Assembly: GCA_032718475.1 (NCBI GenBank)
Contig: JAUCBJ010001614.1
Span: 1 to 49,068 of the forward strand
Reading direction: 5' to 3'
DNA from: Nemertoderma westbladi
Lineage: Eukaryota; Animalia; Xenacoelomorpha
Length of the DNA stretch: 49,068 bases
Under the pieces are notes generated by a model. The model ran no database searches and was not told the DNA's origin. It saw only the letters and a list, made by a program, of their open reading frames with translations. A program made the position numbers and the translations under genes. Of the stretch, positions 520 to 47,043 are shown one piece after another. Within the stretch, counting starts at the first letter, position 1; each line of letters starts with the position of its first letter.

Positions 520-582
520 GTAATTAAACTCAAAGCTGCCGCCCTAGCTAGCTAAACTACCAGCCACCAATCACCAAGCGAG

Positions 583-2271: not shown

Positions 2272-3925
2272 TAATAATGCTATAGTAGACATCGTTAATA
2301 TTAATAGTACCGTATGGGATAACTCTAACCAAACCTTTATTGCAGCGAATAATGCTTTACCTAGTAGCAGTAATTTAAATTTAAGTACAAATAATAATTT
2401 CAATTTGAACGTGCAAAATAATTCAAATAATTTAAATAATGATCCAAGTCCGAATTTACAAAATAATTCAAATGATTTTGTTTCAAACGAACAAATTAAT
2501 TCCGTTTCCAATATGGGTGCTATTAACATGAACACGTTGGGCGTGTATGGCCAGGCAGACGGGGGCCTGGTAGGCCGTACAATTGGTAGGTCAGAAGTGG
2601 CGGGATTGAGCCAACCCAGAGAGGGCCTGGTAGGCCACGTAGTTGATAGGCAGGGAGCGGCTGGGTTGGACAGACCCAGCGAGGGCCTGGTAGGCAACGT
2701 AGTTGGTAGGCAGGGAGTAGAGGGCCTGGTAGGCCACGCAATAGCAGAGGGGGAGGCGGGGGTGAATAGACCCGACCGCGGTAGGGTTGATGTGTCGACT
2801 AGAGAGGGATATAGTAGCGGGGTGAGGGATAGCGAAGTTAGATGTGGCGAGTGGGGGGGGCTACAGGGGCCCCACAACAGCGAGTTAGCGGCGAAAGGGG
2901 GGGGGGGCAGGGAGTGCTCCACAGCCGTCAGCGGACAATGCGCGGGCCGAAATAGGTAAACCACAACATCCGGCGATGGAGAGTAATAGGGGGATTGCGA
3001 GTATCCCCAGCGGCGTGCGACCGAGCAGAGAGAGACAGGTTGACGTCGCGAGAGGGCGGACGAAACGTCGAGCCCGATCAGAAGAGGGAAGAAGAACAGT
3101 GGGGTTTAACCGGGAGGTCGACGAGAGATCTCACGAGCGGGAATACTACACTGGAGGGAGAGGAAGAGAAGACAGTAGTAAAAGTATCGCCGCGAACGAT
3201 AGAAGAGCGAGGACGGATAGCGAGCCGTCGGTAGTCGAGATGAGAACGGAGAGTCAGTGGGGTCGGACTCCGGGAGATTGCCGTCGCCCCGGAGAGATGC
3301 GACCTGGTGAGGTGCATTATGCGCCGATGGAGGGGTACGCGATGTACCGGTACGAGGACGAGAACAGTAGAGAGGGAGGTCGAAGAGAAACTTTCCGACG
3401 GAATGTACCTACCGATCGAGAATACGGTAGCCGCGGGGAGGATTATTCGAGAAGAATAAACTTCGATCCCGAGCGACACATGCAGACTGTAGGACATACT
3501 GTAGGCCTTACTGCACATACCATAGGCCATACTGAGAGAAGCAATGTAGGCGATAGGATAGCGCGGACAACGGGATTAAACCCGGAAGTCGCGGAATACA
3601 TACCGACGGGTAGGCCAGAAGCTGATAGGCCTATACCGGTACCAGTACAGCAGTATGACTACAGCATGCAGGGACATAACATATACCCAGGGGAGGGGGG
3701 AATTATTGCGGATAGGTGTATGGGCCCCAACATATTAACATCAACCCCAGTACCAAACATACCGGTGGGGGGGGGGGGGGGGGACAGGGTGACATTCCCC
3801 CATCACAATATCAACAATATACCCCGATAGGAGCAAGAACAACGAGACCCTTGGATGAAAATAGGTCGTGTGACACGACCGCTACCCCCGATGACATACC
3901 CAAGTCAAAGAAGATCAAGAAATAG
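2269..3925 (+). pseudogene. Middle of gag, split by frameshifts at poly-G runs
   Basis: Successive open frames (2141-2959, about 2907-3830, 3716-3925) switch at G18 (2251-2268), G11 (2897-2907) and G17 (3767-3783); N-rich and G/R-rich low-complexity peptide. Confidence 0.55.
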
Positions 3926-4927
3926 GACGGACGAACCGCACCAGACAGGAGAAACTATACAGCATCCATCGAACCCATTGGAAGTGCAGGCGATGGGGAT
4001 GGCCACGTTGATCGATGCGTTGAAAACGAGGATCGAGTTACCACCCATGGAACCATTCAAATTCGATGGGAGTAGGCCGGAAGAATATCTACAGTTTCGG
4101 CGCATGTATAGTAACGAAATACTAACAAAAAACTTGACGCAGGCGGAGTGCCTAAAGTATCTGCAATATACACGGGAGGCCCAGCATACGATATCGTGAG
4201 GCAATATCAAGGAATAGAGGGCGGCTTCACGACAGCGTGGCGGGCACTGGACAGGGAATACGGGCACCCGGCCAAGATCATCAGACAGACACTGAGAGGC
4301 ATAACATCGGGTGGCCTACAGGATAATCCTGTTAGCATTAAGACGTTCGCTAACAAAGTCGAAAAGGCGCTAATCGTGCTGAAGACGCTAGACGCGCCAT
4401 ACGAGCTCAACGCGTCCAATAACATCACCACGATAGCACAGGCACTACCGAACTGGCTGCGCAACAAGTGGAGGAAGATCGCTTTATCCACTCGAGACGA
4501 GAAGGGTGTGGAACCGGGTTTAGAAGAAATGTCAAGCTTCTTAAACTACGAGGCTGAACTAATAACTGACCCAGTCTATAGCGAAGATAGCCTGGGAAAG
4601 GGACCGAAGACGGATTACCATAGACCGAAACCAGAGCACAATACATCAAACGCATTACCGAGGCTCAGGCAATCATTGCCATATGCAGCGACGCAGGGGA
4701 CTGCAAGTCCACAGCTAGCCGAAGATAAGACAACACCATGGAACGGACAGGGGAATAATAACAACATAAATAAATAAAACCCCAGTACGTCCAGTAGGAC
4801 GAATCCAAACAATAAGAATAGTAGGGACTTTGGTACAAACGCAGCTGCGATACGCAATGCACTGTATAAAGAGGGCTACGACCCAAAGAGCAAATGCCAG
4901 CTACACGCAAATGCGCTTCATCAAACC
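3855..4927 (+). pseudogene. Bel/Pao Gag core (DUF1759-like capsid) and start of the nucleocapsid region, disrupted
   Basis: IELPPMEPFKFDGSRPEEYLQF...LKYL, then YTGGPA...AWRALDREYGHP...LPNWLRNKW; frameshift near 4170; a single in-frame TAA at 4775-4777, after which the frame runs into pol through CQLHANALHQTMNC. Confidence 0.8.
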
Positions 4928-7900
4928 ATGAACTGCAGGTACTGGCAGGCGCTACCTAGGCAAGATCAGATAGATTATGCGTTGAGCAACAATATCTGCT
5001 CGCGATGTGTAATGAGTGGACATAGAGCAAGGGAGTGCAAGGAGAAGCCGGTAAAGTTTGGTCAGAGGAGAGGCCAGACGATGGCGACGAGCACAGTAGG
5101 GGCAAAGAAGAGAGGAACGGTGTTACTTGGAGTAGTACCCGTGCGAGTGATTGGGGAGGGTAATCGATCAGTAACAACACTAATGCTGGTTGATAGTGGA
5201 GCTGCCTTCACATTAGTCGAGGAATGGGTGGCCGAAGAGATAGGATTGAGAACAAGGCCAAGCAGAATGGCAGTAACAACCATCTCTAGCAAAGATGAGA
5301 TCCTGGAGATGAGAACAGGACGGTGCGCAATTGCAGCGGTGGCACCGGGATGCGACTATGGGGCAACCATCGACCCCATCCAAGTGATAGAGTCAATTAA
5401 TATCAATACCAGGCGGCCAACCAACATCGAGGTCGAGCAATATAAATTCCTGGACGACATTGACTTCTCAATCCCAGATGTGGACGTTAGGAAGGTATCC
5501 ATCATAGTAGGAATGGATTGCCCAACGGCCCACGAAAGAATGCAAACGGTCTTCGGCGAAGACAAGCAGTGTGACCCGGTGGCGATATTAACACCATTCG
5601 GGTGGACGCTGAGTGGCCCAATCAAGAGTAAGATACCATTTAGGATGTCGGAGACATCAGGATGCATGTCCGCGGGAACAATGCAGGAAATGGGTGATGA
5701 GGGAGCAGAGGAGCAGCTTAAAAGACTGCTCAGGCAAGATTTCGAGGGACTAAAAGAGACCGGGGTCGGGACCTCGGTAGAAGACAAGCAGGCTTTACAA
5801 AGCGTGGAGGAATCGATGACATGCAATGAGGGGCGGTATACTATAGGAATGGTATGGAAACTACCGAAGATACCGCTGCCCGATAATAGAGGGATGGTAC
5901 TCACGAGACTCCGCAAGCTGAAACAAACACTAAAACGGAGCCCCGAGAAGAATGAGTACATCCACAGAACGATTAAGAAGTACGTCGAGAAAGGATGGGC
6001 AGTGGAGTTACCGGTCGACGAGCCGAACACGGACAGGACATATTACCTGCCACTCCACGTGGCTTTAGACCCAAAGAAAGGTAAACTACGGATGGTAGTC
6101 GACGCATCGGCAAAGACCGACGGAAAATGCTTAAACGACTACCTGTTAGAAGGCCCAAACATATACAACTCGGGCATAGAGGTCCTACTTAGATTTAGGA
6201 ATGGGAAACACGCCTTCACGTGTGACATAGAAGGCATGTTCAACCAAGTCCGTGTAACGGAGGAAGATAGCGACAGTCAGCGCTTCTTATGGTATAACGG
6301 CGAGGAAGAACCGTCGATAATACCGGCATATAAGATGGTAGTACAAAACATGGGGGCCAAGTCGTCTTCATTTACGACGACTATGGCAGTGAGAGACACA
6401 GTGAAGGGGAAGGAAGATAGATACAGCACTAGGGCCGTCGATATGATTCAACGCGGCTTCTACGTAGACGACGGAATGGAGTCTGGAAATATGGTTAAGG
6501 AGATACTGGACACGGGGCGCGAGGTTCGCGACATCCTAAAAGGATCCGGCTTTAACCTGACCAAATTCCAATCCAGTTCGGAAGAATTTATCAAGGCAAT
6601 AGAGGACAGGAGGCCAGAATCGACCATGGATAATCCCACAACCGCCAAAGGGCAGGACATGGCGATTAAGAGAACAGAATCTCAACAGAAGGCATTGGGA
6701 ATCGTGTGGAACAGAGAGACAGACGAACTGAAGTATCAGCTGAGCCAGGAGGGCGCAGACATCCACACGAAGAGGGGCTATGTATCGTATATAGCAAGGA
6801 TATACGATCCCCTAGGCCTAGCATCCCCATTATTAGTCACGGGGAAACAGATACTCAAGAGAGTATACAAATTGAAGGATGAGTGGGACGTAGAGGTACC
6901 AGAGGAAATCAAGAAACAATGGAGTAAGTGGACAGGAGACTTGGAGAAGATGGGAACATACAACATGCCACGAGTGTATTTCCTGGATGGGAACATGACG
7001 AACCTGGACCTGCACATGTTCTCCAATGCGTCGTTGGAGGCGTACGGAGCGGCACTCTACTTAGTGCAACGAGAGGGGGCTCATAAGCCCAGACTAGCCT
7101 TTAGCAAAGCGAAGTCAACGCTGTCAGATTCAGCATCAGTTCCCAAATTAGAATTGACAGCTGCGAGACTAGGAGTTAGAGCCACAGCCTACCTAGTGGA
7201 TACTATTCCCAACATAGTGGAGACACACTACTGGACGGACTCCATGGTAGTACTTGGTTGGCTACATAACGAAAGGACGAGATACCCAATATTTGTCGCA
7301 AATAGAGTGGACGAAATAAGGGCGACCACAGAACTGGAAAGGTGGCACTACTGCCCAACGGACGAGAACCCAGCGGACTTGTTGTCGAGGGGCGTGGTAC
7401 GCCACACTTTCTTGAAGAAGGAAGTATTGTGGCAACATGGGCCACAATTTCTGAGCGATAAGGAGGCCTGGCCGCCGATGAGAAAGGTGGACCCGGGCTC
7501 AGAAGTGGTGTCAGAGGGAGAAGAGGGAGATTCAGAGGGAGAAGAGATATACTCCCAGATGGTGAGGGAGATTAGGGACGTGCAACCAAAATCAGAAGAA
7601 CTGTGCGGTAACCCGACGGATAAACTCCTCAGCTACAGTTCTAGTTGGTATAAGACCAAGAAACTAGTGGCGTACTGGAGAGCCTTCGGGAATTTCCTCG
7701 CGGGAGTTGGCAGAGACAAGAAGATCAGGACATCCATAGATCTGGAAGGAGCGGCAAAGGCAATCATCCGCTATGAACAACAGAAGAACTACGGCGACGA
7801 GGTAGAACGTGTCGGTAACCAACAACACCTCCGACGGGACAGCGAGCTGATCACGCTGTCGCCACAACTTAATGACGACGGGATTCTAGTAATGAACTCT

Positions 7901-9088
7901 AGGGTGGGATACAACAACAGCATAATCGTACCACCGAAACCCATCATCATTCCAACAGGATCGCCAATAGTTCACCAGATTATCTGGGACTCCCACAAGT
8001 CGATATTGCACGGGGGCACCAACCGAACCCTCACCGAGATAAGGAGGACCTTTTGGGTCAAACAGTTGAGGAAGAAGGTAAAAGCGGTGGTGGGGCAGTG
8101 CCAGACCTGCCGACGAGCGAAGAAGGAGCGAGCCATACAAGAGATGGCGCCACTACCAGCGAGTAGGGTAAGACAGCACGACCTGCCATTTACGCATTGC
8201 GGTGTGGACATGTTCGGGCCGATAAAGATCAAGGTGATGCGGCACACGGAGAAACGCTACGGTATCATCTTCGTATGTAACAACACGCGGGCGGTAGGGA
8301 TAGAACTCGCCCAAGATGCAACCGCATCAGCATTCATTAATGCCTTAGAAAGGTTCAGGGACCGCAAAGGTGGGACGATCGCAGTGATATACAGCGACAA
8401 CGGGACCAACTTTGTGGGCGCAGAGAATGAGATGGCAGAGGCCTTGGACATCCTGGAAGGAGAAGAAGTCAGGGCAGCCATGAGACGACGACAAGTAAAG
8501 TGGGAGAGAAGGACACCGTATGCACCACATACGCTAGGGTGCGTCGAGAGACTGGTGGGCAGTTCAAAGCGTCTTATGACGAAGCTAATGAACACCCACA
8601 TGGTCACTGAGGACGTCTTACGGACAGTGCTTGCGAAGTGCGAGGGGATCATTAATAGCAGACCGCTATACCCGGAGAATGATGACCCTGAGTCATTAGA
8701 CGTGCTGACGCCTAGCCATTTCCTGATGGAAAGGCCAGCGACCATCGATATGCGGGGTGTAGACCCAGATGACATACACTCCCGCCAAAGTTGGAAAGCC
8801 GCTAAAGCAATAAGCGCAGAGTATTGGAGGAGGTGGGTAGAGGAATACCTACCCACACTCCATAAAAGGAGTAAGTGGAGGAAGCCAAATAGGGAGTTAA
8901 GAGAGGGAGATCTCGTAATCGTTACGGATGATACTATCATCAACAACCAGTGGCGGTTGGCGAGAGTTGTAGGCACTTACTCCGACGAGGACGGAAGAGT
9001 CCGATCGGTAGAAGTGCGGATACGTGGTAAGATAGGTGCGAAGGACAGAAAAACCTACAGGAGAGCAGTAGGAAATGCTGTCTGTTAG
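4928..9088 (+). CDS. pol: Pol polyprotein: CCHC knuckle, aspartic protease, reverse transcriptase, RNase H, integrase (Bel/Pao)
   Basis: CSRCVMSGHRAREC; protease LVDSGA; RT CDIEGMFNQV and FYVDD; RNase H LHMFSNAS, LEL, WTDS, NPAD; integrase H..LHGG...CQTC, GVDMFGP, SDNG, CVERLVG; C-terminal WRRW..EYL and WRLARV. Confidence 0.96.
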   Translation: MNCRYWQALPRQDQIDYALSNNICSRCVMSGHRARECKEKPVKFGQRRGQTMATSTVGAKKRGTVLLGVVPVRVIGEGNRSVTTLMLVDSGAAFTLVEEWVAEEIGLRTRPSRMAVTTISSKDEILEMRTGRCAIAAVAPGCDYGATIDPIQVIESININTRRPTNIEVEQYKFLDDIDFSIPDVDVRKVSIIVGMDCPTAHERMQTVFGEDKQCDPVAILTPFGWTLSGPIKSKIPFRMSETSGCMSAGTMQEMGDEGAEEQLKRLLRQDFEGLKETGVGTSVEDKQALQSVEESMTCNEGRYTIGMVWKLPKIPLPDNRGMVLTRLRKLKQTLKRSPEKNEYIHRTIKKYVEKGWAVELPVDEPNTDRTYYLPLHVALDPKKGKLRMVVDASAKTDGKCLNDYLLEGPNIYNSGIEVLLRFRNGKHAFTCDIEGMFNQVRVTEEDSDSQRFLWYNGEEEPSIIPAYKMVVQNMGAKSSSFTTTMAVRDTVKGKEDRYSTRAVDMIQRGFYVDDGMESGNMVKEILDTGREVRDILKGSGFNLTKFQSSSEEFIKAIEDRRPESTMDNPTTAKGQDMAIKRTESQQKALGIVWNRETDELKYQLSQEGADIHTKRGYVSYIARIYDPLGLASPLLVTGKQILKRVYKLKDEWDVEVPEEIKKQWSKWTGDLEKMGTYNMPRVYFLDGNMTNLDLHMFSNASLEAYGAALYLVQREGAHKPRLAFSKAKSTLSDSASVPKLELTAARLGVRATAYLVDTIPNIVETHYWTDSMVVLGWLHNERTRYPIFVANRVDEIRATTELERWHYCPTDENPADLLSRGVVRHTFLKKEVLWQHGPQFLSDKEAWPPMRKVDPGSEVVSEGEEGDSEGEEIYSQMVREIRDVQPKSEELCGNPTDKLLSYSSSWYKTKKLVAYWRAFGNFLAGVGRDKKIRTSIDLEGAAKAIIRYEQQKNYGDEVERVGNQQHLRRDSELITLSPQLNDDGILVMNSRVGYNNSIIVPPKPIIIPTGSPIVHQIIWDSHKSILHGGTNRTLTEIRRTFWVKQLRKKVKAVVGQCQTCRRAKKERAIQEMAPLPASRVRQHDLPFTHCGVDMFGPIKIKVMRHTEKRYGIIFVCNNTRAVGIELAQDATASAFINALERFRDRKGGTIAVIYSDNGTNFVGAENEMAEALDILEGEEVRAAMRRRQVKWERRTPYAPHTLGCVERLVGSSKRLMTKLMNTHMVTEDVLRTVLAKCEGIINSRPLYPENDDPESLDVLTPSHFLMERPATIDMRGVDPDDIHSRQSWKAAKAISAEYWRRWVEEYLPTLHKRSKWRKPNRELREGDLVIVTDDTIINNQWRLARVVGTYSDEDGRVRSVEVRIRGKIGAKDRKTYRRAVGNAVC

Positions 9089-9270
9089 AAGGGGCACCTT
9101 AGTGGAGTTGGTAATGAGTTTAGTCGTCCAAGCTTTGGACTGAGGGGCGTGGGATTGAGGGCGAGACGCCCTTCCCACACATAAAAATAGAAAATAAAAA
9201 TAGAAAATAAAAATAAAATAATAGTACATAGTAGGTACGCAGTTAGTAGGCAGAAGTTAGTCAGTAAGAA

Positions 9271-9790
9271 GGTACGTAGTACCTAGAGTTAGTCAGTTAG
9301 TTAGGAGGTACGTAGTACCGCTAGTTAAGTAGAGAGTTAGAGGGTACGTAGTACCGTTAGTTAGAGGAGAGTTAGAAGGTACGTAGTACCTAGAGTTAGT
9401 CAGTTAGTTAGGAGGTACGTAGTACCGCTAGTTAAGTAGAGAGTTAGAGGGTACATAGTACCGTTAGTTAGAGGAGAGTCAGAGGGTACGTAGTACCGTT
9501 AGTTAGAGAAGAGTTAGAGGGTACGTAGTACCGTTAGTTAGAGAGTTAGAGGGTACGTAGTACCGTTAGTTAGAGGAGAGTTAGAGGGTACGTAGTACCA
9601 TTAGTTAGAGAAGAGTCAGAGGGTATGTAGTACCGTTAGTTAGAGAAGAGTTAGAGGGTACGTAGTACCGTTAGTTAGAGAAGAGTTAGAGGGTACGTAG
9701 TACCATTAGTTAGAGAGTTAGAGGGTACGTAGTACCGTTAGTTAGAGAGTTAGAGGGTACGTAGTACCGTTAGTTAGAGCAGAGTTAGAG
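9271..9790 (+). repeat. Tandem array of about 15 units of 32-36 bp with a GGTAC-GTA-GTACC hairpin, between pol and ORF3
   Basis: Consensus AGAGTTAGAGGGTACGTAGTACCGTTAGTTAG(AGA) read repeatedly. Confidence 0.92.
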
Positions 9791-10268
9791 GTAGAAGGGT
9801 ATATAAGATATAGATATTAGTTAGCAGTTAGTAGCGAGAGGGGGGGCATATGAGTACAGTTGGATAGATCGTGTAGGCCGCGCGACATATACTGCTGTAC
9901 TGCACAGGCCCACAGAGTAGGCCAGAATGTGGATTAGAGAAAAGAACAATCCATAGGCAATAGTAAGTAGTAGGACAGTAGAATTAAAATTAAAATTAAA
10001 TTAAAATTAAATAGAATAGGGCTGAAAGTTACAAATAATGGCAACACAAAGAAAGTTATTCTGGAACATAATAAAAGTAACGGACAGAAATTGTAAATTA
10101 GGCTCATTTACTAGCTTCAAAATTAATTAGTTATAATTTAGGTTAAAAGGCGCAGTTAAGTAAGGAATAGGCCATTATCGGACCGTACAGAACATCCTAG
10201 ATACATCACTCATCTGTATTGCGCCTTGGTAAGGCACCACCTTGCAGGTGAGCGAGTGAGTGTTCGGA

Positions 10269-11249
10269 ATGGCGAGCAAATTGATCAGAAAGAGAAAGGC
10301 GGAGTCAGGAGGAAAGGAGATGCTGGTGGATTTCACCGAGAGGCATCCGGAAGAGAAGACGAGAGGATACTACGAGAGGTTGGAAAGGGGTCACGCGGCA
10401 CGAGCGCTGCAGGATCACTTCCGGGAGATGCACGAACAGCGGCTGGTCGGGACCTACGGGACGCCGTCGCTGGATAACGCGATCTTCCAACACTTCCACT
10501 ACGTGGTGAAAGGGGACAAGGCGAAGTTCGGGATTCCGAAGTACCCGAGGGAATCACCGAGGAAGGACTGGAAGAGATTCATAGAGTCCGTCAACAGAGG
10601 AGGATATATGATCCTAGACGACGAGGGAACCGTGGAAGACGAGGCGGGTTCGAGACGAGGAACGGCGGGGTCGGCCAGGACCATACTCCTACATTTGGCC
10701 GCGCCAAATGGGGACATCTTCTTATTCGATCTAGGAACGTATGGGAAGAAGGACGGGCCGAAATTAAACCGGTTACCGAAAGCGGTACAAGTCTTGGTAA
10801 GAGAGAAGTCGACGACGAAAGTGGGATCAGCGATTCACGAGGATGCGGAGAGAATCATCGGTCCGGACGCCACCAACCTCCTGGATATGCAGAAGGTCTT
10901 TATGGCTATGACGGCACCGGATGGGTTGGGGGTAGTCGAAAACACAGGCCAATGCGGGGCGGTGGCAATGGGCCAATTATTGGGGCTCGTGTGCCACAAA
11001 CCGATGGATTGGGGGAAGTTCAGGGAAGAATACGGAGCAGAACTAGCGAACTCGCTAAAGTGGGGAGCGAGACCGGGAAAGCAAGAGGTATATCAATTCC
11101 GCAGAGGAGCGATAAAGGTATATCAGAAGCGATATATCCTGCAGGAAGATTGGATGATGATAAGTTTGCTTAACTTATTTATGACCGTGGTTATCGAGAG
11201 GGAACCAGGGGCATTTCTGTTATCGGGATCACCCCTAAGCTACATGTGA
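10269..11249 (+). CDS. Retrotransposon ORF3, N-terminal part: DEDDy 3'-5' exonuclease-like domain (WRN/Mut-7/EXD/RNase D-like)
   Basis: ExoI YMILDDEG; LLHLAAPNGDIFLFDL; LPKAVQVLVREKSTTKVGSAIHEDAERI (ExoII); NLLDMQKVF; ExoIII-like QKRYILQED. ATG at 10269 in the context GGAATGG. Confidence 0.75.
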   Translation: MASKLIRKRKAESGGKEMLVDFTERHPEEKTRGYYERLERGHAARALQDHFREMHEQRLVGTYGTPSLDNAIFQHFHYVVKGDKAKFGIPKYPRESPRKDWKRFIESVNRGGYMILDDEGTVEDEAGSRRGTAGSARTILLHLAAPNGDIFLFDLGTYGKKDGPKLNRLPKAVQVLVREKSTTKVGSAIHEDAERIIGPDATNLLDMQKVFMAMTAPDGLGVVENTGQCGAVAMGQLLGLVCHKPMDWGKFREEYGAELANSLKWGARPGKQEVYQFRRGAIKVYQKRYILQEDWMMISLLNLFMTVVIEREPGAFLLSGSPLSYM

Positions 11250-12823
11250 GCCTTTAAAATGGCCTTCGACGGTCTGGTAGACCACCCGGGGCTGAAGGGC
11301 GAGTCGGTGTACTATAACAGCCGGCATCTGGTAGACGGGGAGACAGATACGCCGTATCAGAGATGGGAGCAGCTAGAAACGGATAGACGAGAAGCAAAGC
11401 GACTGGAAGAAGTCGCTAGACGGGAGAGGATAGAAGCAGAGGAGAGGGAAGAGGAGGCCAGGACACAGAGTCGAGGAGACACGGCTTCGAGGAACAGGCG
11501 GGCTTAGACGAGCTTCATTGGACTTCGTCAGGGAGTTCGGGGGAGTCTCTAGGGCGAGAACTGGGATGGACGGTGGGATCACCGAAACAATCGACGTCGG
11601 GGTTGCAAGCGATGCCCATACCAGCGGGCGCCGAAGGCGACCAACCGCCAAGGAAGTTAAGGGAGTTAGAGGGATGGAGAGCCACGGGTGAGAGCCAAGG
11701 CGGGAAGGGACATAGTGGATCCATCGCGATACCGGGGTTGGAGCCACTGCCAGAGGAGGAGGAGGGCGACGACGAGTTCGGAGAGATGCCGCCCATCGAG
11801 AGGATAGGCCACTCGGACACGGACTGGGTTGGCGGAAGGGTGGTGACGGCCAGTGGGGCGAGGGCCTTCTGGAACAGATCTGGCAAGCGGACCTGGGTGC
11901 ACGAGGAGCCGGCGATGGATTTCGCGGGGAGCACTATCAGGTTGGGCGAGCAACCGGGGACGGCACCACGGATAGTATTCGGGGAGACGATGCCCGAGAG
12001 GGGCGGAGAGATCGACGTAGACAGAGACACCAACGTGGAGAAGTTCGCCTACCAGCGACTCCACAGACCGTGGAGGTCGCTTGGGACGAAAGACGACGTG
12101 GGGCGGGAGACATTGGTACTCGGCTGCGACTACTGTGGGAGACAGACCCACCAGGAAAGGAGCTGCCTGTACCGGTTCCAAAAGGGAACCTTTTGTCTCT
12201 ACTGCCGAGAACCAAGCCACAGGATGGGGGCGTGTCCACGGTTGCATAACCGATGTCCAAAGTGCCACTTTCGGGGACACTACGGACGCCAGTGCGACGG
12301 GATGGACGACGAAGAGAAGTTCAGGAGATTCGAGGAGTGGGCCGACGTTGGGGCTATGACGCGCCAGCGCATGAAGGCCCAGGAGTTCAAGTGGGGTTTC
12401 TTCCTTATCAATCAGGAGGCTCACATGGAAATCATAAAGCGGAGGCTACCGTTTACCTATCGAGAGCTAGCAACGGCGGCGTCGTATGCTGGAGTAATGA
12501 ACACACAAAGATATTTGGACAGGTGGACGCCACAGAACCGAGGGGAGTTTAGGGATTTCTTGGCGGAGCACGTACCGCAAGCAATGAAGATGATCCTATG
12601 GGACGCCACCAGAGGGAGACAACAGGGCCACTCTGAGGGGCCACCGGCGAAGCGATATCGGGCACTAATAACACCAGCACCCAAGGAGCCAACAACCGGA
12701 ATCAGCAGGGAGGTGGCGGCGAAGGTCCGAAAGCAGAAAGCGGATCCCAGAGGAGCGGTGGTAACCAAGAAACGACCCAGGGAAGAGGACGCCAGGGGGA
12801 ACTATCCCCAGAGGAACAGATAG
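11250..12823 (+). CDS. Retrotransposon ORF3, C-terminal part with three CCHC zinc knuckles (one stop and one frameshift separate it from the exonuclease)
   Basis: The frame continues past TGA 11247-11249 (same frame as 11259-11507). The frame of 11573-12823 is open back to at least 11465. Knuckles CDYCGRQTHQERSC, CLYCREPSHRMGAC, CPKCHFRGHYGRQC. Confidence 0.75.
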
Positions 12824-13525
12824 GTTCCCAGGGCTGAGGGAGAGAAACTGGGACTTGGACGTGGTACGCCTGGAAGGCGCCGCGTGGGACGTACGAACTA
12901 TTAAGTACAAATCTAATTAATGCAAATAATCATATAAGTGCAATTCGTATGTACGTACGTAGTAATTAGTAATCTACAAATATACGTTCGGAGTAAGTAC
13001 TATAGTCATACAACCTTTCTCAATTAGCTACTGGGACTGGGGGGATAACTGACTATGGCACTATGGACGAGACACCAGACAATTTCACACTTCTTGAGTG
13101 CGACGGCACAAGAGGGGGGGGGAGATTCGTCAGAAGGGATGAGGCAATCGAAGTGGGGTTGAGGAACGGAGCAATAGTGCGAAGTGCGGAGAGAGTGCGG
13201 ACGCAATTCTAGTGTGTGGGGGGGGGGAGAATAAGAGGCTGAGTGAGGGACGAGGAGGTCCGAGGGTATGAGAGAGTTAGGGTGAGAGTGGAGAAGAGAT
13301 AGGGCGAAAGTGTTGGGGAAACAAAAGTCGCGTGAGAGGTGAGCGCGATCGGCCCGACATGAGACGCCAGGCATACAGGGTAGCGTTATCATACCCATAG
13401 GGAGCGGCCTGGAAAGCCGGCTCCGAGAGAAAAGAATTCCACCCCACACCCGATACTAGATCGGGATCCAGCGGGATTGTAGCGCACTTAAGGTGGATGC
13501 TATCTTCTCACCGGGAAGATAGCAT

Positions 13526-13534
13526 GGGGGGGAG
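13526..13534 (+). promoter_or_regulatory. Polypurine tract (plus-strand primer)
   Basis: GGGGGGGAG directly before the TG of the 3' LTR. Confidence 0.85.
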
Positions 13535-14081
13535 TGTTAGCTTATTCAATCCCGCTAACACCCCATAAAGTTAAGCCGATAAGCAATATTGGGGGCCACG
13601 AGATTGGGTAATCAACCAACTCGTGCCACCCCAATAAAATGGGAAGGAGAAACACAATGAGGGTCAGGGGCCAAACCCCTAACCCAGAGAGAACAGGTGG
13701 AGTGAACGGAAACACTCCAAAGGGCGCCAACAAGGGTATCAACCAATCAGAGGGGGGAAAGGCATCGATTAGGTAGAGTAACAAGGCCAACCGTGCAATA
13801 TAGCCAGTTGGCAGTAATCATTTCAGTTCAGTTATCTCAGTATCATATTGGTGCTAGTTAGGTTAGTTAGTTTAGCTAGGGAAGGACCGGGACTTTAATT
13901 ACCGTATCCCGCCTTCTGTATACGACAACATTATTCATATACCTATATCTTTATACCCTATATCTATATCAGTTATTATATACGACGAACGACACGAACT
14001 CCTTTCACCTTTCATACACACGGCGGGGACGCGTGAACTAAACAACCGGATAAACCGGGATCCTTCCTGGATCCCGTCACA
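13535..14081 (+). repeat. 3' LTR, 547 bp, TGTTAG...GTCACA
   Basis: TG/CA termini; identity to 1-519 ends exactly at 14081. Confidence 0.97.
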
Positions 14082-15318
14082 TAGAATGCTATGAAAAAAG
14101 CATGTCAAAACTTTTGAACCAAAACTATAACCATCACAGCTAGCTATCCGATAATGACATATTGTAAGACAACTCAAAAGCGAAATCCTGAACAACTTAT
14201 GGGTGAATGAGATTAAATGATTGGATGCAATGTAAAAAACATTGCCAAGCACTCTGAACGTGAACATGCCATCTCTGGAATTCTCTTGCACGCAAGTATT
14301 GCATTTGCTTAGTATTTGTGCCATGACTCATCAGTGGACTATGAATACATTTAAATTCATGTTGACTCCATATCCACTCATACCTATACAGACAACCTAC
14401 ATGAAAATGGATTACCAGAATGATCTGAGACCTCCAAGTCCACATGATCCTTCTGACAACAAAGATATTAGATTTCGTTCCTTCATGCAAGCCGTGGCTC
14501 AAGACCTTATATATACCTATATAGATATATTATATAGACCTTATAAATATTAATAATTTGGTAGGACATGCATTGATGACCCATTTTTAGCGCCAATATG
14601 ATCTCGCCAGTTGGCAGGTGCCTCATCCATACGTATGAAGGGATGCTAAGAATGTAATGAAACATTCCAACATTCCAATATTCCTGAAAATGTCTGTAGA
14701 AGAATGTTTCGCAATAACCTTCAATTTACACTCTATGGTATAGGGGGAGGGGGGGGGGGGGGTGGATGTTAATAAAAAAAATTTATTGTGAAAAAAAGTT
14801 TCGGACAAGTAAGCAGGCCGCTACTCTTGCAATAAAGATTTGTATTTCTCATTTGTATTTTCTAAAAACGTTTCCTGTTAAGAATAATAAAAAACAAGCA
14901 ACTAAGACCGACGGATGAAGAAACAAATGCATATTAAATGCGCTTCACATAAGCTCTCTCTAAAACTATTTATCTGGTATGGTAGGTATTGGTATAGAGT
15001 ATTACATATTCCCGTAGTATCGCCCTTACAGTAGTAATTCGTGACACGCCTCACTCCGAACTCCCACTAACGTGGAGCTGCAGAACATGCCGACACCAAC
15101 ATAATTGATTTCAATCAGTTTTAAGTAAATATAAAGCCTCTTATATCCCCTACTCAGTCAGCCCTACAATGAGCCACTCCTGTCTGTTGTACCTCCCATC
15201 CTTAAGTAATTACTGAGGAGATTTAAGAATCACGAAGGAAGCATGGCTCTGTGGTGATTGCAAAGGTTACGAAAGTTGTTGAAGTCATTAAAAGCAAACT
15301 TTTAACGTAAATTTTCAG

Positions 15319-15595
15319 GCCCATGTGAAGAATACCAGACTTTCTTCCGTTATATTTCACTTGGCAGTTACCCCCATGTGAAGAATACCAGGTTTTCACC
15401 AAAACCACAGGTTACAGAAGGGCTGAATCTAACCAAAACAATAAACGAATTAGTATATGTACAGGTTATAAGACAGAAATAAGCGCTATAAAAAACTTAA
15501 TAAAGATAAATTTAAAAAAAATAAAAAATCTTCATATATAAAATTCCAATAAAAAGTCGACCGAAAAGTGAAATCCTGGTATTCTTCACATGGGC
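15319..15595. mobile_element. MITE-like element with 20-bp inverted repeats
   Basis: GCCCATGTGAAGAATACCAG at 15319-15338, an inner direct copy near 15373, and the reverse complement at 15576-15595. Confidence 0.55.
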
Positions 15596-15597
15596 GA

Positions 15598-15735
15598 ATT
15601 TTCACTGACTTTAATCAATTTTTCACTAATTGTAATCAATTTTTCACTAATTGTAATCAATTTTTCCCTAATTGTAATCAATTTTTCACTAATTGAAATC
15701 GATTTTTCACTAATTGTAATGAATTTTTGACTGAT
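15598..15735. repeat. 21-bp tandem repeat (AATTTTTCACTAATTGTAATC), about 6 copies
   Basis: Directly visible. Confidence 0.8.
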
Positions 15736-17802
15736 TTATCAACACTATATTGCATCATTTGTACCATTAATAAGATCTATTATGTTATTATGTTATTATT
15801 ACTATTATGCAATCATTATGTTGTTGCTCTCAGACACAGAAAATAAGAGTTTCCTCACCATTTCTATAATGTTTAAAGAACGCCTTAAGGAACTGAATGT
15901 CAATTCGAACAGGAAATAATTAAAATAGGCTTGTTCCGGGGGATCGATTTACATAAATCCATCTAGAGATAAGTGCATCATCAGACAGTGTACATCGATT
16001 TCAACAGGTCAGAGAGTAACAAAATTTGCACACCTGCGGATTGATTAGTTCGCATGAAATAGCAATCGGAAAAGGGCGGTCCACGCCTGGAGAAAAACTC
16101 CTCTGCCATTGCTGAGGTGTTGGGGATAAAATTCCCTCATACACTGTGCTAATTCCCTCACTGTGTACATTCAATACACAGTTACCTCTTGTACTGGTTA
16201 CCAGGGGTTAGTAGTTTAGTAGTAGCATGGTAATTTGAATGGTAAATGGTAAACATAAAAGAGGTAAACATCCTCGCTCAAATATCTGTCAACTTTTCTC
16301 ATATTTGGATCTCTCGTGTCAAATGTTCTTCGGGATCTCCGGAGGATAGCGCGTTCACCACTACCCCAATGACTACTGTCGTAAAGCAGTCAGACTGTGT
16401 TGTTGGCGATAAGGAAAGAGCCAACTGGAGGGAGGAAAGGTGGAGAGGTCTGTCATTGACAATCCTGAAACGTCTGATAAAAGACTAATAGTCTTCATAA
16501 TGCAGATGAGTTGAGGATCTGATCCCGTACTGCGGTGGTGTTGTGTTGCGGGGGCGGTTGTCATTACCTGGGCATTACATGATAGACTTTCCTACAGACC
16601 GACCGACCCAGAAACAAAGCTGCCCCAATCCACTCGATCAGAAAATTCATTTTCCAAGTTCGGCGATGTTATAAAGTATGTTTTGTCTTGAACAGCCGGG
16701 AGCCGGCGATGGAAAGTTATTGACAGTCCACCACCATGTCTGATGAAACCAGGAGAATTCCGTAGCACAGGGTTGTGAACAGCAGTTTTAGGCGGCGGGA
16801 TTACAAAGAGGTCCATTTTGGCAATGAGACGTCACCAAAATTATAACAAAGCATCTTTATTTCTTGTCCCTTGCACTATGGTCGCGCCCTTTTCCTAATA
16901 GATAGTTAATTTATTTCCCATAAAAGCCATCGTATAACCTTCATCCACAATATTATAAGTGCAGCTTATCCAATATTGTGTACCTTGCGTAACATTTGGT
17001 ATATTCAGCAGTGCCCAGCAAGAAGCAGCGCAGGCTCTACTGCTTCACATAAAATCCGCACCCTTGGGCTGATTTCTAGATTATACACGTTAAGATGATT
17101 ACATTATAGTGGTGTGGGCCTGTAATAGTGTGCAGTGCAGTGGTATATGGATAATTGGATTGGTATGTAGATATTGGTAGATTATTTTTAATATTATTAT
17201 AATTAAATAATAATATAATTTTTACAATTAGTATAATTAAAACGTATTTTTAAGAGGAACGAGTTGTAATACTATAGGAATAGATACACCTCACATTCGG
17301 CAATTGTACCCTATCGCTAATGACTCCCTGGACAAGCCTCTCATTTTTAGCGTACAAACGAATTCCTGGACGAACTCAACTACAAGATTCATTGACACAG
17401 ACGATGGCAATTAAATTTGCCCATTTCATTATCACCCTCCGTAATATTTCACACTCCATAAAACTCAAACCATCATCGCAAACACATATAAACCAAGAAA
17501 CATTGGATCTCAATATGGTATAATATAATACTTTACTTAAGAGTTGATCTTGTACCGGTATACTATAAACTGTAGACAGCCCGCTGGCAGGCTCTATACC
17601 AAGGTATATGAAGACAGGGAGGGGTGCATTAGATAATGATACTTTTTTTACCTTGTTAGATTTAACTTTACTCTCGCTGACCAGGACCATCTATTCCCGT
17701 CACTTACACGGAAATTTTGTTATACTAGCCTATATATTAAGGCTTTTATATCTAATGAATTATTCACCAGGCAACCCTTTTCTCTGAGGCGATTGCTGAG
17801 AT

Positions 17803-18053: not shown

Positions 18054-19238
18054 GATAAATGAGGTATCTGGTCGGAAAAGTTGTGCAAAGGGGCGCCTCA
18101 AAGCCGATAGTCCTGAAGAACGTGTTGGGAAGTGGAAAAATCAGTTCAGCAACTTGCTTGGGCAGCCACCAAACATCGAGGTCAGCCCCACAAGGAAAAT
18201 ATATGACAATACACTACCTATAGAAACAGGGGACTTCACACCTGCCGAACTCCAAAGAAGCATTAAAAGCATGTCCAATAATAAAGCGAGTGGATTAGAT
18301 GAAATCCCGGCGGAGGTATGGAAAACCGGAGTGCTAAACAGACCATTGTTTGCAACCGGATCTTAAAAGGGGAAAGGCCACCACCAATTTGGACTAAAGG
18401 TCAACTAAAGCCTCTCCCCAAGAAAGGAGACCTCGGCATACCACCAAACTATCGTGGGACCTGTCTGCTTGTGGTAGCTGCCAAAATATACAATAAAATG
18501 ATTCTATATAGGATTAGGCCTCACATAGAGAAACTACTGCGTAAGAGCCAAAACGGATTTCGACCAAGTAGATCAACAATAGCTCAGATACTAGCACCGA
18601 ATCATGACCTTTAATGTTGATGAAAACTTGACAATCATTGATAATAATCAACTAAGGAAGGTCAATGATTTCCAGTTCCTGGGATCATGGATAGAGAGTA
18701 GCAAAAAGGACATAGAAGTTAGGAAAGTAAAGGCTTGGGTAGCTCTATCAAAAATGGATACCATCTGGAAATCAGATCTCTCCAGGCACCTGAAGACTAA
18801 GTTCTTTCGAGTCACAGTGGAAAGTGTATTTTTATACGGGGGTGAGACCTGGACACTGACTAAATCACTTGAACAACGAATTGATGGTTGCTACACAAGA
18901 CTACTAAGGGCAGCCCTAAACATCAGCTGGAGACAACACATGACAAACGCCGAGCTTTATGGTACAATACCACTTGTATCAACCACACTCTGTGAACGCA
19001 GATTAACATTCAGTGGGTACTGCTGGCGAAGTAGAGATGAGGTCATACCAGATCTACTTCTCTGGCAACCAACTCATGGAAAGCGTAGTCGTGGACGACC
19101 GGCCATAACATATATAGATCAACTTGAAAGGGATACTGAACTTTGGAGAAACGAAATTGCGACAACTATGGAGAATCGGAAGCCTGGAAGGATCTCATTT
19201 CCACTGTCCGAGTTCGCTCGACCTAGTAGTAGTAATAG
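18054..19238 (+). mobile_element. 5'-truncated, internally deleted RTE-like non-LTR retrotransposon
   Basis: NKASGLDEIPAEVWK, PLPKKGD...NYRG, QNGFRPSRSTIAQI, then directly FQFLGSWI...LYGGETWTLT...GKRSRGRP; (AGT)n-like tail; flanked by TAATATTTAGTT on both sides (possible TSD). Confidence 0.88.
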
Positions 19239-19279
19239 TAATATTTAGTTAGGATCCTATTAATATTTAGTTCACGTAC

Positions 19280-19654
19280 CTGATAACGGTCCCAACTCAT
19301 ACAAGTGAGGATGAATGTGGTACTCGCCAGCGTGACTATCTGCCCGTAAACCAGAATCTTACACGCCTCCGGACCCAAAACCCACTCCCCGAAGGCGACA
19401 AACAATATCTCTGTAGTCATGGTAACCAGACAAACAGCGAGGTCCCCGACGGCGAGGTTTATCATAAATATTCCGACTCGGGTTTGGGGAGTTCGTTTAC
19501 GGGACTTTCCCACGAGGACTTTGATGATGATGGTGTTGCCGACAATAGTGGTTACCATGGTTACGGCTATTATGCACACTCTGATTTTGTCCCAGTAGGT
19601 TAGGTTGTCGGCTGGAGGGGATGCAGCAGTCACGTTGACTGCGAAATCAGCCAT
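19280..19654 (-). CDS. First coding exon (N-terminus to TM3/DRY) of a class A neuropeptide GPCR of the vasopressin/GnRH/CCAP receptor superfamily
   Basis: MADFAVNVT...IVGN (TM1), FMINLAVGDL (TM2), WVLGPEACK, MSWDRYQ; phase-0 GTACGT donor after Q; TTTTTAG acceptor at 19691-19697; in-frame stop upstream of the ATG. Confidence 0.92.
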
Positions 19655-21820
19655 TCCCCTTGCCAATATATACCTCTTCTACTCTTATACCTAAAAATTA
19701 ATATATAAAAAAGTTACCAAAGTTACCAATGCAAAGCAAACCAAAATATCTGGATAAAATATAGTCTCGTTTTATTGTTTTTTAGAAAACGTGGTGATTT
19801 ACATATTGTGTTTCGTAGATTTAGTAAGATGGCGCTATTGGTGGATATATTGGTGCAGAATCTGAGTTTTCATTGATTTCGATTCATCGATTTCGAGTCT
19901 TCGATTACATTAATTAAAGCTTACTTTCATATTATGTGGGTTTTGTAAATGGCGAGTGTGTTCACTAATGAGCTGCGCATTGTATGGCTTTGAATGGCTA
20001 ATCTCGCACTGAATACCTGAAATGAATGTACGTGTTGCAAAAATTGCGATTATATGAATAAATCCCTTATTATGCGGATGCAAATACAGAGCTTCACTCT
20101 TCTAATAATCTCAGAAAATGTTCCAATTACAGCAGTTGATTAGCTAAAGCCTTGATGTACATCACAAGGATACAATAAAAAAATAAGTTAAGAAAGTCAT
20201 CATCCTCATGCATAAAACCTTCCATTTATTTGTAACACATAAATGTCTACTGTAGTTACTGTATAACCTCGGTTAACGAAAATTATAATTATAACGTCCT
20301 TATATATATTTCGGCCTTACTGTTTTAAGAGGAATTGGAAATTTAAACGAGTGTTTACATAAAATTAAATTTCTAAAATATACATTTTTGGTACCACATT
20401 TTGTATCATCGGAAATTATGTTATCTGAAAAATAATGATAAATTGAGGAAGACTAGTCAGCGTGGCCATGGGATATAATATTGACATATTTTTCTGACAG
20501 TATGTCATAGATGACAGATATTAATCTTAGAATTTAATAATCAGGATCTGCAGAAGTCCGTCTTCTCCGGAAATAAATTTAATTAAAAAGTGAAGCTTTT
20601 ATGTGGATTAATCTTAGTTAATGCATCGTACTTAACAAGTACCAAGATTATAATCTGGCTTAACTTCAAGGTATTGAGACAGATGCCTCAGGAGGGCTTT
20701 AGGGAATGTTTACTGCCGCAGTAAAACTAAAAAATTATTGTCGACTCTGATAAATTCAAAAAAATGAACGATTGGAATTCTTATATTCAATCTATCAACC
20801 AGACACAATGGGCAGCATCCAATGAGAGACGAAGTCAGCTGATATAACTAAAAAATGAGGACGAAGTTGGCGTTCTGGAAAAAGTGCCATAATAATTGGT
20901 ATAAATCTAGGTAATAATTACTATATCTATAATATATTTATTATTATTATTGGTGTCAATTTAGTTCGTGGTTATGCCATCACAACAACCACAGAGTGAA
21001 TTATTGTCACGATATTTGCTGAAAAGATACAAATATCACGGTTGCAATAAACACAATGACGACTACATCGGGTTATTGGAATTTATTTGCATCATTTGAA
21101 CAAATTCAGGGGTGTAAGGCATCCATGCGGTCATGATGTTTCATTCTATATTTCAAGAATGGATCAGCACATCGACTGGATTGATGATGTCTGCCCCCAC
21201 TAAATCCACTACTGTGATTCCACAGTTTGTACAGTAATGTAATGTACAATAAAAAAAATAAGCATATCAGGAAAAAGGTTGCGAATTATCGCGACCAGAC
21301 ATTTTTTGCAGAAATTGGAATGGAATTCATTTCCAGGTTTTGGTATCAAATAATTTTTGTTGGCCTTGGCCTATGAGAAATGAACAACCTATCATAAGTG
21401 CAATGATAATTTTATGGTTCAATAGGTTTGGGGCTCAGAAAATTAGCATTGAACAGTTGGTTGAAACTGCAAGGGATTTTACATGGTCTATCTCATTCAC
21501 CCCAAGAAACAGCTCCAGAAATACTTGGCCACATACAGATCTGCCATCTCGAAAATTTGCTATCGCGATAGCTGAAATTCACAATCAATTACGAGCTAAA
21601 ATTAGGGCTAAAATAAATCGGCTAATTCGAATTATGGCAATTTGGAAACTAGTTGGTACATTTAATTACTGTACAGTACAATATTAATTAGGCCTACATT
21701 CCATGCAAATAAAGGTCTCCATTAGAAATTACACACGATTACAAATTTAATCATGTGAATTTAGTGATGAATTTGTTTCACTTTCATAATTGTGCAGTGA
21801 TAAACTGTCTGAGTTATAAC

Positions 21821-22061
21821 TACTAATAGGAGCGGCATGCTGCTTCATTACAGCTGCATTATATATATATATTACATATATTATAAGAATGCTGTGCCGG
21901 CTTGTCGACAAAATTGCGCCGCCGCAACTCCCTATCCCCATGACATTTGCTAGATCATCCGATCTTCAAGGCCAGTGTCCTTTAAGATGCGTCTCAAGAA
22001 AGTCATGGACTGTACACCATGCTTATTCACTCCATGAGGTCGCTAAAGCACAAGATTATGC

Positions 22062-22063
<2 letters not shown>
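21821..22063 (-). mobile_element. 3'-end fragment of an RTE-like LINE (same family as 36320-36931)
   Basis: Reverse complement aligns with 36731-36931, including the 3' UTR AATGCAGCTG...GCAGCATGCC. Confidence 0.85.
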
Positions 22064-22465
<402 letters not shown>

Positions 22466-39822: not shown

Positions 39823-40000
39823 AGTAGTAGGGTCTTGTGCGGCTCGGCGACAGTTAGACCTCACTGACTGGCGCCAGACTGTCTGGGTGACACCCAATGA
39901 CACCTATGGGTGTCATTGGGTGTCATTGGGTGTCACCCAGACAGTCTGGCGCCAGTCAGTGAGGTCTAACTGTCGCCGAGCCGCCCAAGACCCTACTACT
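39823..40000. mobile_element. 178-bp foldback element with target-site duplication
   Basis: Arms of about 80 bp, AGTAGTAGGGTCTTG...CAAGACCCTACTACT, one mismatch; TGTATG on both flanks (39817-39822, 40001-40006). Confidence 0.88.
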
Positions 40001-45636: not shown

Positions 45637-45700
45637 CTGCAAATAAAATAAACAATTCTTAGACAAATAGTGTAAGCGTAAAGGATAGTAGGTAAAGAGT

Positions 45701-47043
<1,343 letters not shown>

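Follow-up and report, generated by a model that had tools for sequence, protein, structure and literature searches.

A predicted DEDDy exonuclease joined to CCHC zinc knuckles in the env position of a Nemertoderma westbladi BEL/Pao retrotransposon

A long reading frame occupies the env position of a retrotransposon in Nemertoderma westbladi, and the question is what protein it encodes and what that protein may do for the element. We analyzed a window of 49,068 nucleotides (assembly GCA_032718475.1, contig JAUCBJ010001614.1, positions 1 to 49,068). The carrier, whose type the initial annotation left unnamed, is a BEL/Pao (Belpaoviridae) retrotransposon, with LTRs around gag and a pol that has Pao-specific domains. 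The order PR-RT-RH-IN is found between the LTRs, and Pfam matched Peptidase_A17 (E 6e-38) and DUF5641 (E 8e-23). The features outside the third gene are the following.

1-519, + strand: 3' part of the 5' LTR (the window starts inside it), ending in CA, 99.6% identical to 13563-14081
583-4777, + strand: long gag region, split into several ORFs in this copy (ORF list)
4115-4774, + strand: DUF1759 in gag (Pfam)
4778-9088, + strand: gag knuckle and pol, with protease, reverse transcriptase (RT), Peptidase_A17 (the BEL/Pao RNase H region), integrase, and DUF5641 (Pfam)
4997, + strand: gag CCHC knuckle (motif scan)
9263-9791, + strand: 35-bp tandem array of 15.3 copies, the spacer between pol and the third gene
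13563-14081, + strand: portion of the 3' LTR paired with the 5' LTR, the true start lying further upstream (LTR comparison)

The element measures at least 14,081 bases, beyond the 4.2-10 kb genome range of Belpaoviridae (PMC8742986), which is descriptive and not a criterion of membership. Between the two LTRs, 2 of 519 bases are different, which indicates a recent insertion. Contig depth was in the tens of thousands on the element versus 10-27 on the flank; such summed depths do not count copies and were read as "high-copy" only. The family is young and has many copies. Viral contigs searched with a pol query yielded no relative.

The third gene (ORF3) occupies 10269-12823 on the sense strand, with pol before it and the 3' LTR (end 14081) behind it. 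The initial annotation had rebuilt a sense ORF of about 850 codons here by crossing a TGA at 11247 and a frameshift at about 11450-11505. This reconstruction was borne out, with the break placed at about 11472-11480. From the ATG at 10269, 326 amino acids are encoded up to the TGA (11247-11249), followed by 85 same-frame codons to 11507, and an ORF of 467 codons in another frame covers 11420-12823. Five other ATGs occur between the pol stop and ORF3. The parts of the gene are listed below.

10240-10250, + strand: putative splice-acceptor-like site, about 20 bases upstream of the ORF3 ATG (sequence)
10269-11249, + strand: first segment, 326 aa, opening with a basic region of about 110 aa and continuing into the predicted DEDDy/WRN-like domain (about 10600-11220)
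10617-10625, + strand: ExoI-like D117-x-E119 (LDDEG), in a low-confidence part of the model; the other register is E123-x-E125 at 10635-10643
10812-10850, + strand: ExoII-like block (KVGSAIHED, D192 at 10842), the top-scoring block (11.4 bits, next position 1.2; HMM match)
11133-11153, + strand: ExoIII-like Y289...E293-D294-W295 (RYILQED), with Glu in the catalytic Asp column (profile alignment)
11250-11471, + strand: middle segment, charged, same frame as the first (codon model; 10 of 17 variant sites silent)
11472-11480, + strand: frame break, absent in bridging copies
11481-12823, + strand: last segment, with an acidic Gly/Pro/Ser-rich linker, three CCHC knuckles, and a basic tail; stop at 12821-12823
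12125-12295, + strand: three Cx2Cx4Hx4C zinc knuckles (12125-12166, 12194-12235, 12254-12295; exact motifs)

An env-like glycoprotein is characterized by a signal peptide and a membrane anchor, and neither had been evident at the first inspection. Our results agree: the top 19-residue hydropathy window of ORF3 reaches only 1.3, which leaves no clear membrane anchor, and the N-terminus is charged, with no signal peptide as judged by eye.

Other copies of the family cover both breaks. At the stop (11247), all four runs (17, 16, 11, and 1 contigs) depart from the window in 100% of their depth. For the frame break, three DNA runs do so in 96-98% of the depth that covers it; among the contigs listed, one spans the break with more than 31 bases on either side. 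Run X6, guessed to be RNA and labelled as another species, has no bearing on expression. As the stop and frameshift are missing from the other copies covering them, about 850 codons form a single gene in the family; the contigs that show both breaks to be absent elsewhere come from three DNA runs. Two separate ORFs or a programmed frameshift were rejected because the bridging copies lack the frame break. A third frame at 11434-11691 was also rejected, as only 5 of 20 variant sites are silent there, compared with 13 of 20 when read in the frame of the knuckles.

Selection was measured over the middle 500 bases (11250-11760), where silent changes account for 23 of the 37 variant sites, against an expected fraction of 0.315 (P=1.2e-4). 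The silent excess is confined to the two joined frames, and the crude dN/dS over the same interval, a comparison across copies that had been proposed beforehand, is 0.28. ORF3 is a family-wide gene under selection, as supported at 11250-11760. Additionally, a codon model trained on gag and pol prefers the joined frames, save near 11470-11600 and 12070-12190.

These observations bear on a quite improbable alternative, in which ORF3 is a passenger or nested insertion without a role, or its N-terminal part has another fold and resembles a nuclease by chance. The silent-variant excess argues against a passenger, as does the purine-rich strand skew, which is the same in ORF3 and gag-pol and stops at the LTR. 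No pol-to-LTR joint was present among the best 15 of 110 joints, and no repeats flank ORF3, which also speaks against a nested insertion. A passenger would, however, fit the contigs in one respect, as no single one joins ORF3 to pol in another copy.

As for the encoded protein, the N-terminal domain of ORF3 is predicted, with good confidence, to adopt a DEDDy fold, although the signal in the sequence is weak. LDDEG, KVGSAIHED, and RYILQED were all found where they had first been read, with LDDEG outside the top four positions for the ExoI block. A profile of 51 bacterial WRN-like exonucleases scored 7.4 bits, equalled by 2 of 2000 shuffles; the glocal score was equalled by 8 of 1000 shuffles and by 0 of 27 other element windows, and hhalign gave a colinear alignment of 149 columns (P=0.017), these P values of about 0.001-0.02 being taken before allowing for three profile families, of which the WRN-like was the third tried. 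Significance was not reached with RNase D-type profiles (equalled by 91 and 56 of 1000 shuffles and by 41 of 500; P 0.5 and 0.27). One BLASTP comparison matched 40 residues to E. coli RNase D at E 7e-4; it was set aside, its register conflicting with the multiple alignment.

In the ESM Atlas, 25 of 30 matches fell in the PF01612 set, the best of them at 0.94 with 179 shared features in a cluster that carries PF01612 on 34% of its members; the top three matches were unnamed clusters (0.94-0.95). Together with the WRN-like score, this match to the family predicted beforehand argues against chance resemblance. On the side of chance, shuffled proteins scored at least 0.9 in 4-10 of 100 cases, and library matches and homologues are lacking. 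The Pfam check suggested in the initial annotation failed for the nuclease domain, as no PF01612 match was listed (E up to 10, filters on) and the Pfam cut-off was not reached. PDB sequences and PHROGs searched with this domain were blank. No homologue was found for the first segment in the protein database (longer and near lengths) or among 1.84 billion representative proteins, for residues 130-400 of the last segment in the protein database (near lengths, up to 818), or for ORF3 in viral, metagenome, and prokaryote contigs; tblastn against phage and plasmid gave one chance-level match each (E 5).

Structure prediction, also proposed at the outset, gave a divided answer. The model from the single sequence had a pLDDT of 31, too low to be of use. 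The alignment-guided model reached 62, with the ExoI region below 50, and matched WRN (Z 11.6, rmsd 3.1, 156 aligned); this match and that to Nibbler are circular, because the alignment that guided the model consisted of WRN-like proteins. Foldseek with the alignment-guided model found no PDB match at E<=0.001. The DEDDy assignment of the initial annotation is supported by the Atlas and the WRN-like profile, whereas the absence of a standard library match and the ExoIII Glu weigh on the other side.

A metal-binding active site composed of D117, E119, D192, Y289, and E293 or D294 is somewhat favored by the alignment to the DEDDy set. In this alignment, D192 and Y289 match, E293 stands in the fourth column with D294 adjacent, and the ExoI register is ambiguous. 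Catalytic activity of the predicted exonuclease is uncertain because of the Glu in the ExoIII Asp column and the unsettled ExoI register.

EXD1, Maelstrom, and Egalitarian are RNA-binding adaptors. ORF3 could likewise have the DEDDy fold but be a catalytically weak or dead adaptor that escorts, exports, or packages the element RNA, its knuckles acting as nucleocapsid-like grips, a reading that we regard as rather unlikely. The altered ExoIII column and the ambiguous ExoI register point that way, as do several insertions relative to WRN-like enzymes and the basic N- and C-terminal regions (K+R 0.20-0.22). EXD1 and Maelstrom are described in the rotifer report as inactive DEDD derivatives retaining RNA binding (PMC5408684). 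However, all four catalytic columns are acidic and the Tyr is kept at an overall identity of about 20%, and the DEED acidic sets of rotifer elements are read by their authors as possibly active (PMC5408684).

The three knuckles of the initial annotation are exact, at 12125, 12194, and 12254. Two or more such motifs occurred in 0 of 100,000 shuffles of the 467-codon ORF. Pfam knuckle models match them below their cut-offs only, and weak PDB matches include nucleocapsids and trypanosome RNase D. The latter enzyme (TbRND of Trypanosoma brucei, PDB 7c42) has a DEDD domain and four CCHC knuckles, which bind the stretch of RNA that precedes the 3' end and without which trimming is incomplete (PMC7797062). 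The fusion, at first not recognised, accordingly has a cellular analogue.

This solved case also bears on a highly improbable reading, namely that ORF3 acts on DNA, proofreading or trimming cDNA 3' ends or removing aborted cDNA and so maintaining an unusually long genome. The best-matching profile is that of WRN-like enzymes, for which single-stranded DNA can be a substrate (PMC5408684); the length of at least 14 kb versus 4.2-10 kb (PMC8742986) would suit this role. In contrast, the knuckles joined to the DEDD domain of TbRND bind RNA (PMC7797062), and many transitions are found among the copies.

The apparent lack of a tRNA primer site suggested a bolder alternative, in which ORF3 helps replication by producing or cleaning the RT primer. 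The site concerned is as follows.

520-531, + strand: primer-site position without TGG, 11/12 complementary to LTR 329-340 / 13891-13902

The first TGG downstream of the 5' LTR is at position 728, whereas BEL/Pao elements have an 18-nt primer site for tRNA-Arg/Gly (ICTV profile, PMC8742986). No tRNA gene was found in 1-16000, and Rfam and ARAGORN scans of the element were blank. At 520-531, 11 of 12 bases pair with the LTR 12-mer, and the perfect 9-bp part reaches the LTR junction; such a complement arose in 39 of 20,000 Markov LTRs, for a match spotted post hoc. The helper would trim the element RNA to this duplex, so that the 3' end falls exactly on the LTR boundary. We consider this unlikely, as the pairing is missing from the minimum-energy fold predicted for 320-560, and the sole AATAAA of the 3' region, at LTR position 71, is upstream of the 12-mer and would put it in U5. 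Moreover, self-priming of the Tf1 type requires RNase H alone. A full version, in which a BEL/Pao lineage without tRNA priming makes its own primer (the knuckles gripping the RNA, the exonuclease trimming to the paired 12-base LTR stretch, and RT starting there), is more doubtful still.

Nibbler, EXD1, and Mut-7 are players in small-RNA pathways. By analogy, our preferred reading, with a probability of about 0.4, is that ORF3 encodes a predicted WRN/Nibbler-like 3'-5' exonuclease, an acidic linker, and three CCHC knuckles, serving as a counter-silencing nuclease. ORF3 would be expressed from its own, probably spliced, message. As in trypanosome RNase D, the knuckles may grip single-stranded RNA and so present its 3' end to the nuclease. 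Possible substrates are host piRNA or siRNA guides or their precursors, or trigger RNAs of the element itself; trimming them would blunt silencing and allow the family to keep multiplying. A link of mut-7 and EXD1 to small-RNA pathways is also given in the rotifer report, where DEDDy cargo is common to LTR and Penelope-like elements (PMC5408684), and we infer from one cargo type in both that a general role is favored over one bound to a mode of priming.

Since the 2017 rotifer report, the question has been what nuclease cargo does in the env slot, and the present case extends that question to BEL/Pao. In a young, high-copy family, selection is measurable over many copies, and the knuckle fusion is a layout with a solved mechanism, which leads to a direct assay prediction. 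If counter-silencing is true, a retrotransposon would encode, in ORF3, an antagonist of small-RNA defence made from the host's own trimming fold; if primer-making is true, it would represent a new way to prime reverse transcription and the first defined job for a repeatedly captured nuclease cargo.

Among known systems, the element resembles Belpaoviridae (PMC8742986) in its LTRs, gag with DUF1759 and a knuckle, PR-RT-RH-IN order, Peptidase_A17, and DUF5641; it differs in its size of at least 14 kb, a third gene that is not env-like, and the lack of a TGG-type tRNA primer site. The predicted nuclease shares the ExoI-II-III order and spacing with the WRN exonuclease, EXD2, Nibbler (Mut-7), and EXD1 group (PF01612), which gave the best profile and Atlas matches; it differs in its low identity, below the Pfam threshold, in the Glu of the ExoIII Asp column, and in the insertions. 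TbRND has the layout predicted for ORF3, with several CCHC knuckles downstream of a DEDD exonuclease domain. However, it acts on guide RNAs in the cell and has four knuckles and a linker of 28 residues, whereas ORF3 has three knuckles about 300 residues past the domain. Their sequence likeness is limited to the knuckles (E 0.46), which makes convergence likely.

The precedent in rotifers named by the initial annotation exists, as Juno/Vesta LTR retrotransposons and Athena/Terminon elements of bdelloid rotifers have a DEDDy ORF3 (Rodriguez, Kenefick, Arkhipova 2017, PMC5408684). The nematode precedent was not found in the literature searched, the text of PMC6086898 having 0 occurrences of "DEDD" or "exonuclease", and neither was a DEDDy ORF3 in BEL/Pao nor a DEDDy-CCHC knuckle fusion of this sort. 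The following comparison uses the published description (PMC5408684). Both ORF3 types are non-env third genes behind pol, DEDDy-type (as predicted here) with an altered acidic set and without membrane or signal features, and the present one is a separate gene common to its family; the activity and role of both are putative. The acidic set is changed in ExoIII here and is DEED in the rotifer ORF3s. In the text of that paper, "CCHC" has 0 occurrences, a Cys-His-Cys motif is given for Vesta2 and Vesta5, and BEL/Pao is not named among the elements. The paper reports no clear link of rotifer DEDDy ORF3s with copy number, which speaks against the counter-silencing reading. Unlike the rotifer ORF3s, the present gene has about 850 codons and belongs to a high-copy family. 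Nuclease cargo was thus already known from rotifer elements of other families, and the BEL/Pao carrier and the predicted knuckle fusion add to it.

The third gene of the element (ORF3, 10269-12823, sense, between pol and the 3' LTR) opens at the ATG at 10269 and meets a stop at 11247 after 326 codons. Past this stop, the same frame is open to 11507, and another frame then runs to 12823. Other copies were sampled through contigs of four public runs from three samples (X1 and X3 share a sample), aligned to the element; the three DNA runs (X1, X2, and X3) covered 30 of 30 bins of 1-14400. At the 11247 stop codon, 100% of the covering depth differed from the window (17, 16, 11, and 1 contigs). Near 11472-11480, 96-98% differed in X1, X2, and X3 (5, 2, and 5 contigs), and these differing contigs keep the reading frame unbroken. 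At least one of the contigs listed spans the frame break with more than 31 bases on either side; contig depth falls there, probably due to clipping of short contigs. Because contigs lack both the stop and the frame break, ORF3 is continuous in other copies, and the fusion of about 850 codons, which the initial annotation had rebuilt across the TGA and a frameshift, is real. The contigs are short, and linkage of ORF3 to pol within one contig was seen in no other copy. The three CCHC knuckles, also read in the initial annotation, are exact; among 100,000 shuffles, 13 gave one motif and none gave two. The highest 19-residue hydropathy is only 1.3 and falls on what is predicted to be the final helix of the nuclease domain, in agreement with the earlier view that no env-type membrane anchor is evident.

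No repeats flank ORF3, and none of the best 15 of 110 joints in the contig data skips it whole, whereas three of these 15 remove its 3' part (about 1% of depth). These minor family variants, at 12095-12867, occur in all three DNA runs, the deletion running from inside the third knuckle to past the ORF3 stop. For the selection test, 40 of 41 variants at 11200-11760 were taken and 3 at the breaks were removed, leaving 37. Silent variants numbered 23 of 37, where a share of 0.315 was expected (P=1.2e-4; crude dN/dS 0.28); this result applies to the linker region alone, and to neither the knuckles nor the nuclease domain. The silent share was 10/17 and 13/20 per segment, and the excess was confined to the two frames that join. 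ORF3 is real, family-wide, and under selection in the tested linker region; that it is a passenger, or has no nuclease, is very unlikely.

The nuclease domain had no match in Pfam, PHROGs, or PDB sequences, and no homologue search returned an ORF3 homologue. In the ESM Atlas, 25 of 30 matches of residues 95-326 fell in the PF01612 set (best 0.94, 179 of 256 features), whose best cluster carries PF01612 on 34% of its members; three unnamed clusters (0.94-0.95) held the top ranks. Of 100 shuffled proteins, 4-10 score 0.9 or more, a calibration that applies to whole proteins rather than protein parts. Profiles were constructed from bacterial PF01612 proteins, comprising two RNase D-type sets and 51 WRN-like proteins. 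ORF3 was not distinguishable from shuffles with the two RNase D-type profiles, whereas the WRN-like profile scored 7.4 bits, a value that 2 of 2000 shuffles attained. The hhalign alignment with the latter was colinear across 149 columns (P=0.017), and its glocal score was equalled by 8 of 1000 shuffles and 0 of 27 other element windows. D192 aligns with the catalytic block ExoII and Y289 with ExoIII, and E293, adjoined by D294, occupies the fourth catalytic column. ExoI has two possible registers: D117-x-E119, which follows a hydrophobic run, and E123-x-E125, the MAFFT placement. The block scored alone favours neither.

The single-sequence structure model was unusable (pLDDT 31). The model guided by the WRN-like alignment averaged a pLDDT of 62; 111 of its 246 residues lay at 70-90, and the ExoI region stayed below 50. 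It resembled mouse WRN (Z 11.6, rmsd 3.1, 156 aligned) and Aedes Nibbler (Z 11.6, rmsd 3.8, 193 aligned), which indicates compatibility with the fold only, because the alignment imposed it. Foldseek returned no PDB match for this model at E<=0.001; it gave a single match at 0.001, RNase H-like and from a giant virus. The DEDDy domain of the initial annotation is backed by the PF01612 Atlas matches and the WRN-like profile, and weakened by the blank Pfam and PDB searches. The ambiguous ExoI register and the Glu in the fourth catalytic column make its activity uncertain. The N-terminal domain very probably has the predicted DEDDy fold, and its predicted catalysis is somewhat likely; that the protein is a dead RNA adaptor seems rather doubtful. 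The knuckles weakly match retroviral nucleocapsids, LIN-28, and trypanosome RNase D (E 0.06-3.4). The Atlas matches of the C-terminal half, all below 0.9 and mostly to CCHC or DUF8363 clusters, are leads only.

The window starts within an LTR, and the insertion is recent, as 1-519 and 13563-14081 differ at only 2 positions. The domains predicted by Pfam (DUF1759, protease, RT, Peptidase_A17, integrase, and DUF5641) are the BEL/Pao set. A purine-rich strand skew spans 1-14000, including ORF3, and stops at the LTR. In the window copy, gag is also broken. The gag region (583-4777) is very long, at about 1400 codons. It holds tandem repeats of 111 and 54 bp, an Asn-rich stretch, and runs of G around 2250 and 3765; in this copy, several stops or frame changes interrupt it, and a stop at 4775 precedes the knuckle-pol ORF. 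Further features of the window are as follows.

9263-9791, 35-bp tandem unit, 15.3 copies, between pol and ORF3; array length differs among copies
493-513 and 14055-14075, 8-bp perfect hairpin (5-base loop) within each LTR, close to its 3' end
19223-19678, minus strand, rhodopsin-family receptor exon (Pfam 7tm_1, E 2e-17)
22050-22480, long trinucleotide run
30440-32800, 30-bp tandem array, about 70-80 copies
39823-40000, near-perfect inverted repeat of 82 bp around a 14-base spacer
45650-46800, 8-bp array

The LTR hairpin resembles a U5 inverted repeat. The receptor exon, presumably of a neuropeptide receptor, points to an animal host. The fragments at 18595-19248 (plus), which had no Pfam match, and 36470-36895 (minus) resemble the C-terminal part of ORFs from RTE-type LINEs.

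ORF3 starts 1.2 kb past the pol stop, five ATGs intervene, and an acceptor-like site lies immediately upstream of its ATG; from these features, ORF3 would be expressed from a separate, probably spliced message, as is typical of retroelement ORF3s according to the parts consulted of the 2017 rotifer ORF3 paper (PMC5408684). The knuckles of trypanosome RNase D contact the RNA at five to nine bases from its 3' end, and full trimming requires them (PMC7797062). By analogy, the ORF3 knuckles would bind RNA and the nuclease domain would trim it. The substrate, again by analogy, may be host small RNAs or silencing triggers (probability roughly 0.4), a reading preferred because enzymes that trim small RNAs are among the nearest folds and because such cargo is common to elements with different priming modes. 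Primer trimming would fit the absence of TGG after the 5' LTR and the complementarity of 520-531 (11 of 12) to the LTR stretch 329-340 / 13891-13902, ending at the junction, a match found post hoc and reached by chance in 39 of 20,000 cases. However, the predicted fold lacks this pair and the sole AATAAA lies upstream of the complementary LTR stretch, and we consider this role unlikely; DNA proofreading is highly improbable. The complementarity itself may point to self-priming or to a stem between U5 and the leader.

Compared with the 4.2-10 kb that the ICTV profile gives for BEL/Pao genomes, whose third genes it describes as solely env-like (PMC8742986), the element here is longer, at least 14 kb. 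Searches of the open-access literature, subscription journals being outside their scope, yielded neither a BEL/Pao element with a DEDDy-type third gene nor a retroelement DEDDy-CCHC fusion. The word "exonuclease" is absent from the portion covered of a BEL/Pao survey (PMC3118150), and precedent could exist in its supplementary element sequences, in Repbase, or in the Terminon paper, which lay outside the comparison. The rotifer precedent named in the initial annotation holds: in the parts consulted of PMC5408684, where "CCHC" does not occur, DEDDy ORF3s of unproven activity are described in Juno, Vesta, and Terminons, and three reviews, also covered in part, repeat the finding (PMC6431247, PMC5718144, PMC6338049). 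There, DEDD is altered to DEED, whereas here E293 occupies the fourth catalytic column. This kind of nuclease cargo is already known from rotifer retroelements. Within the literature compared, what appears new is its carriage by BEL/Pao, its WRN-like subtype, and its fusion to three knuckles.
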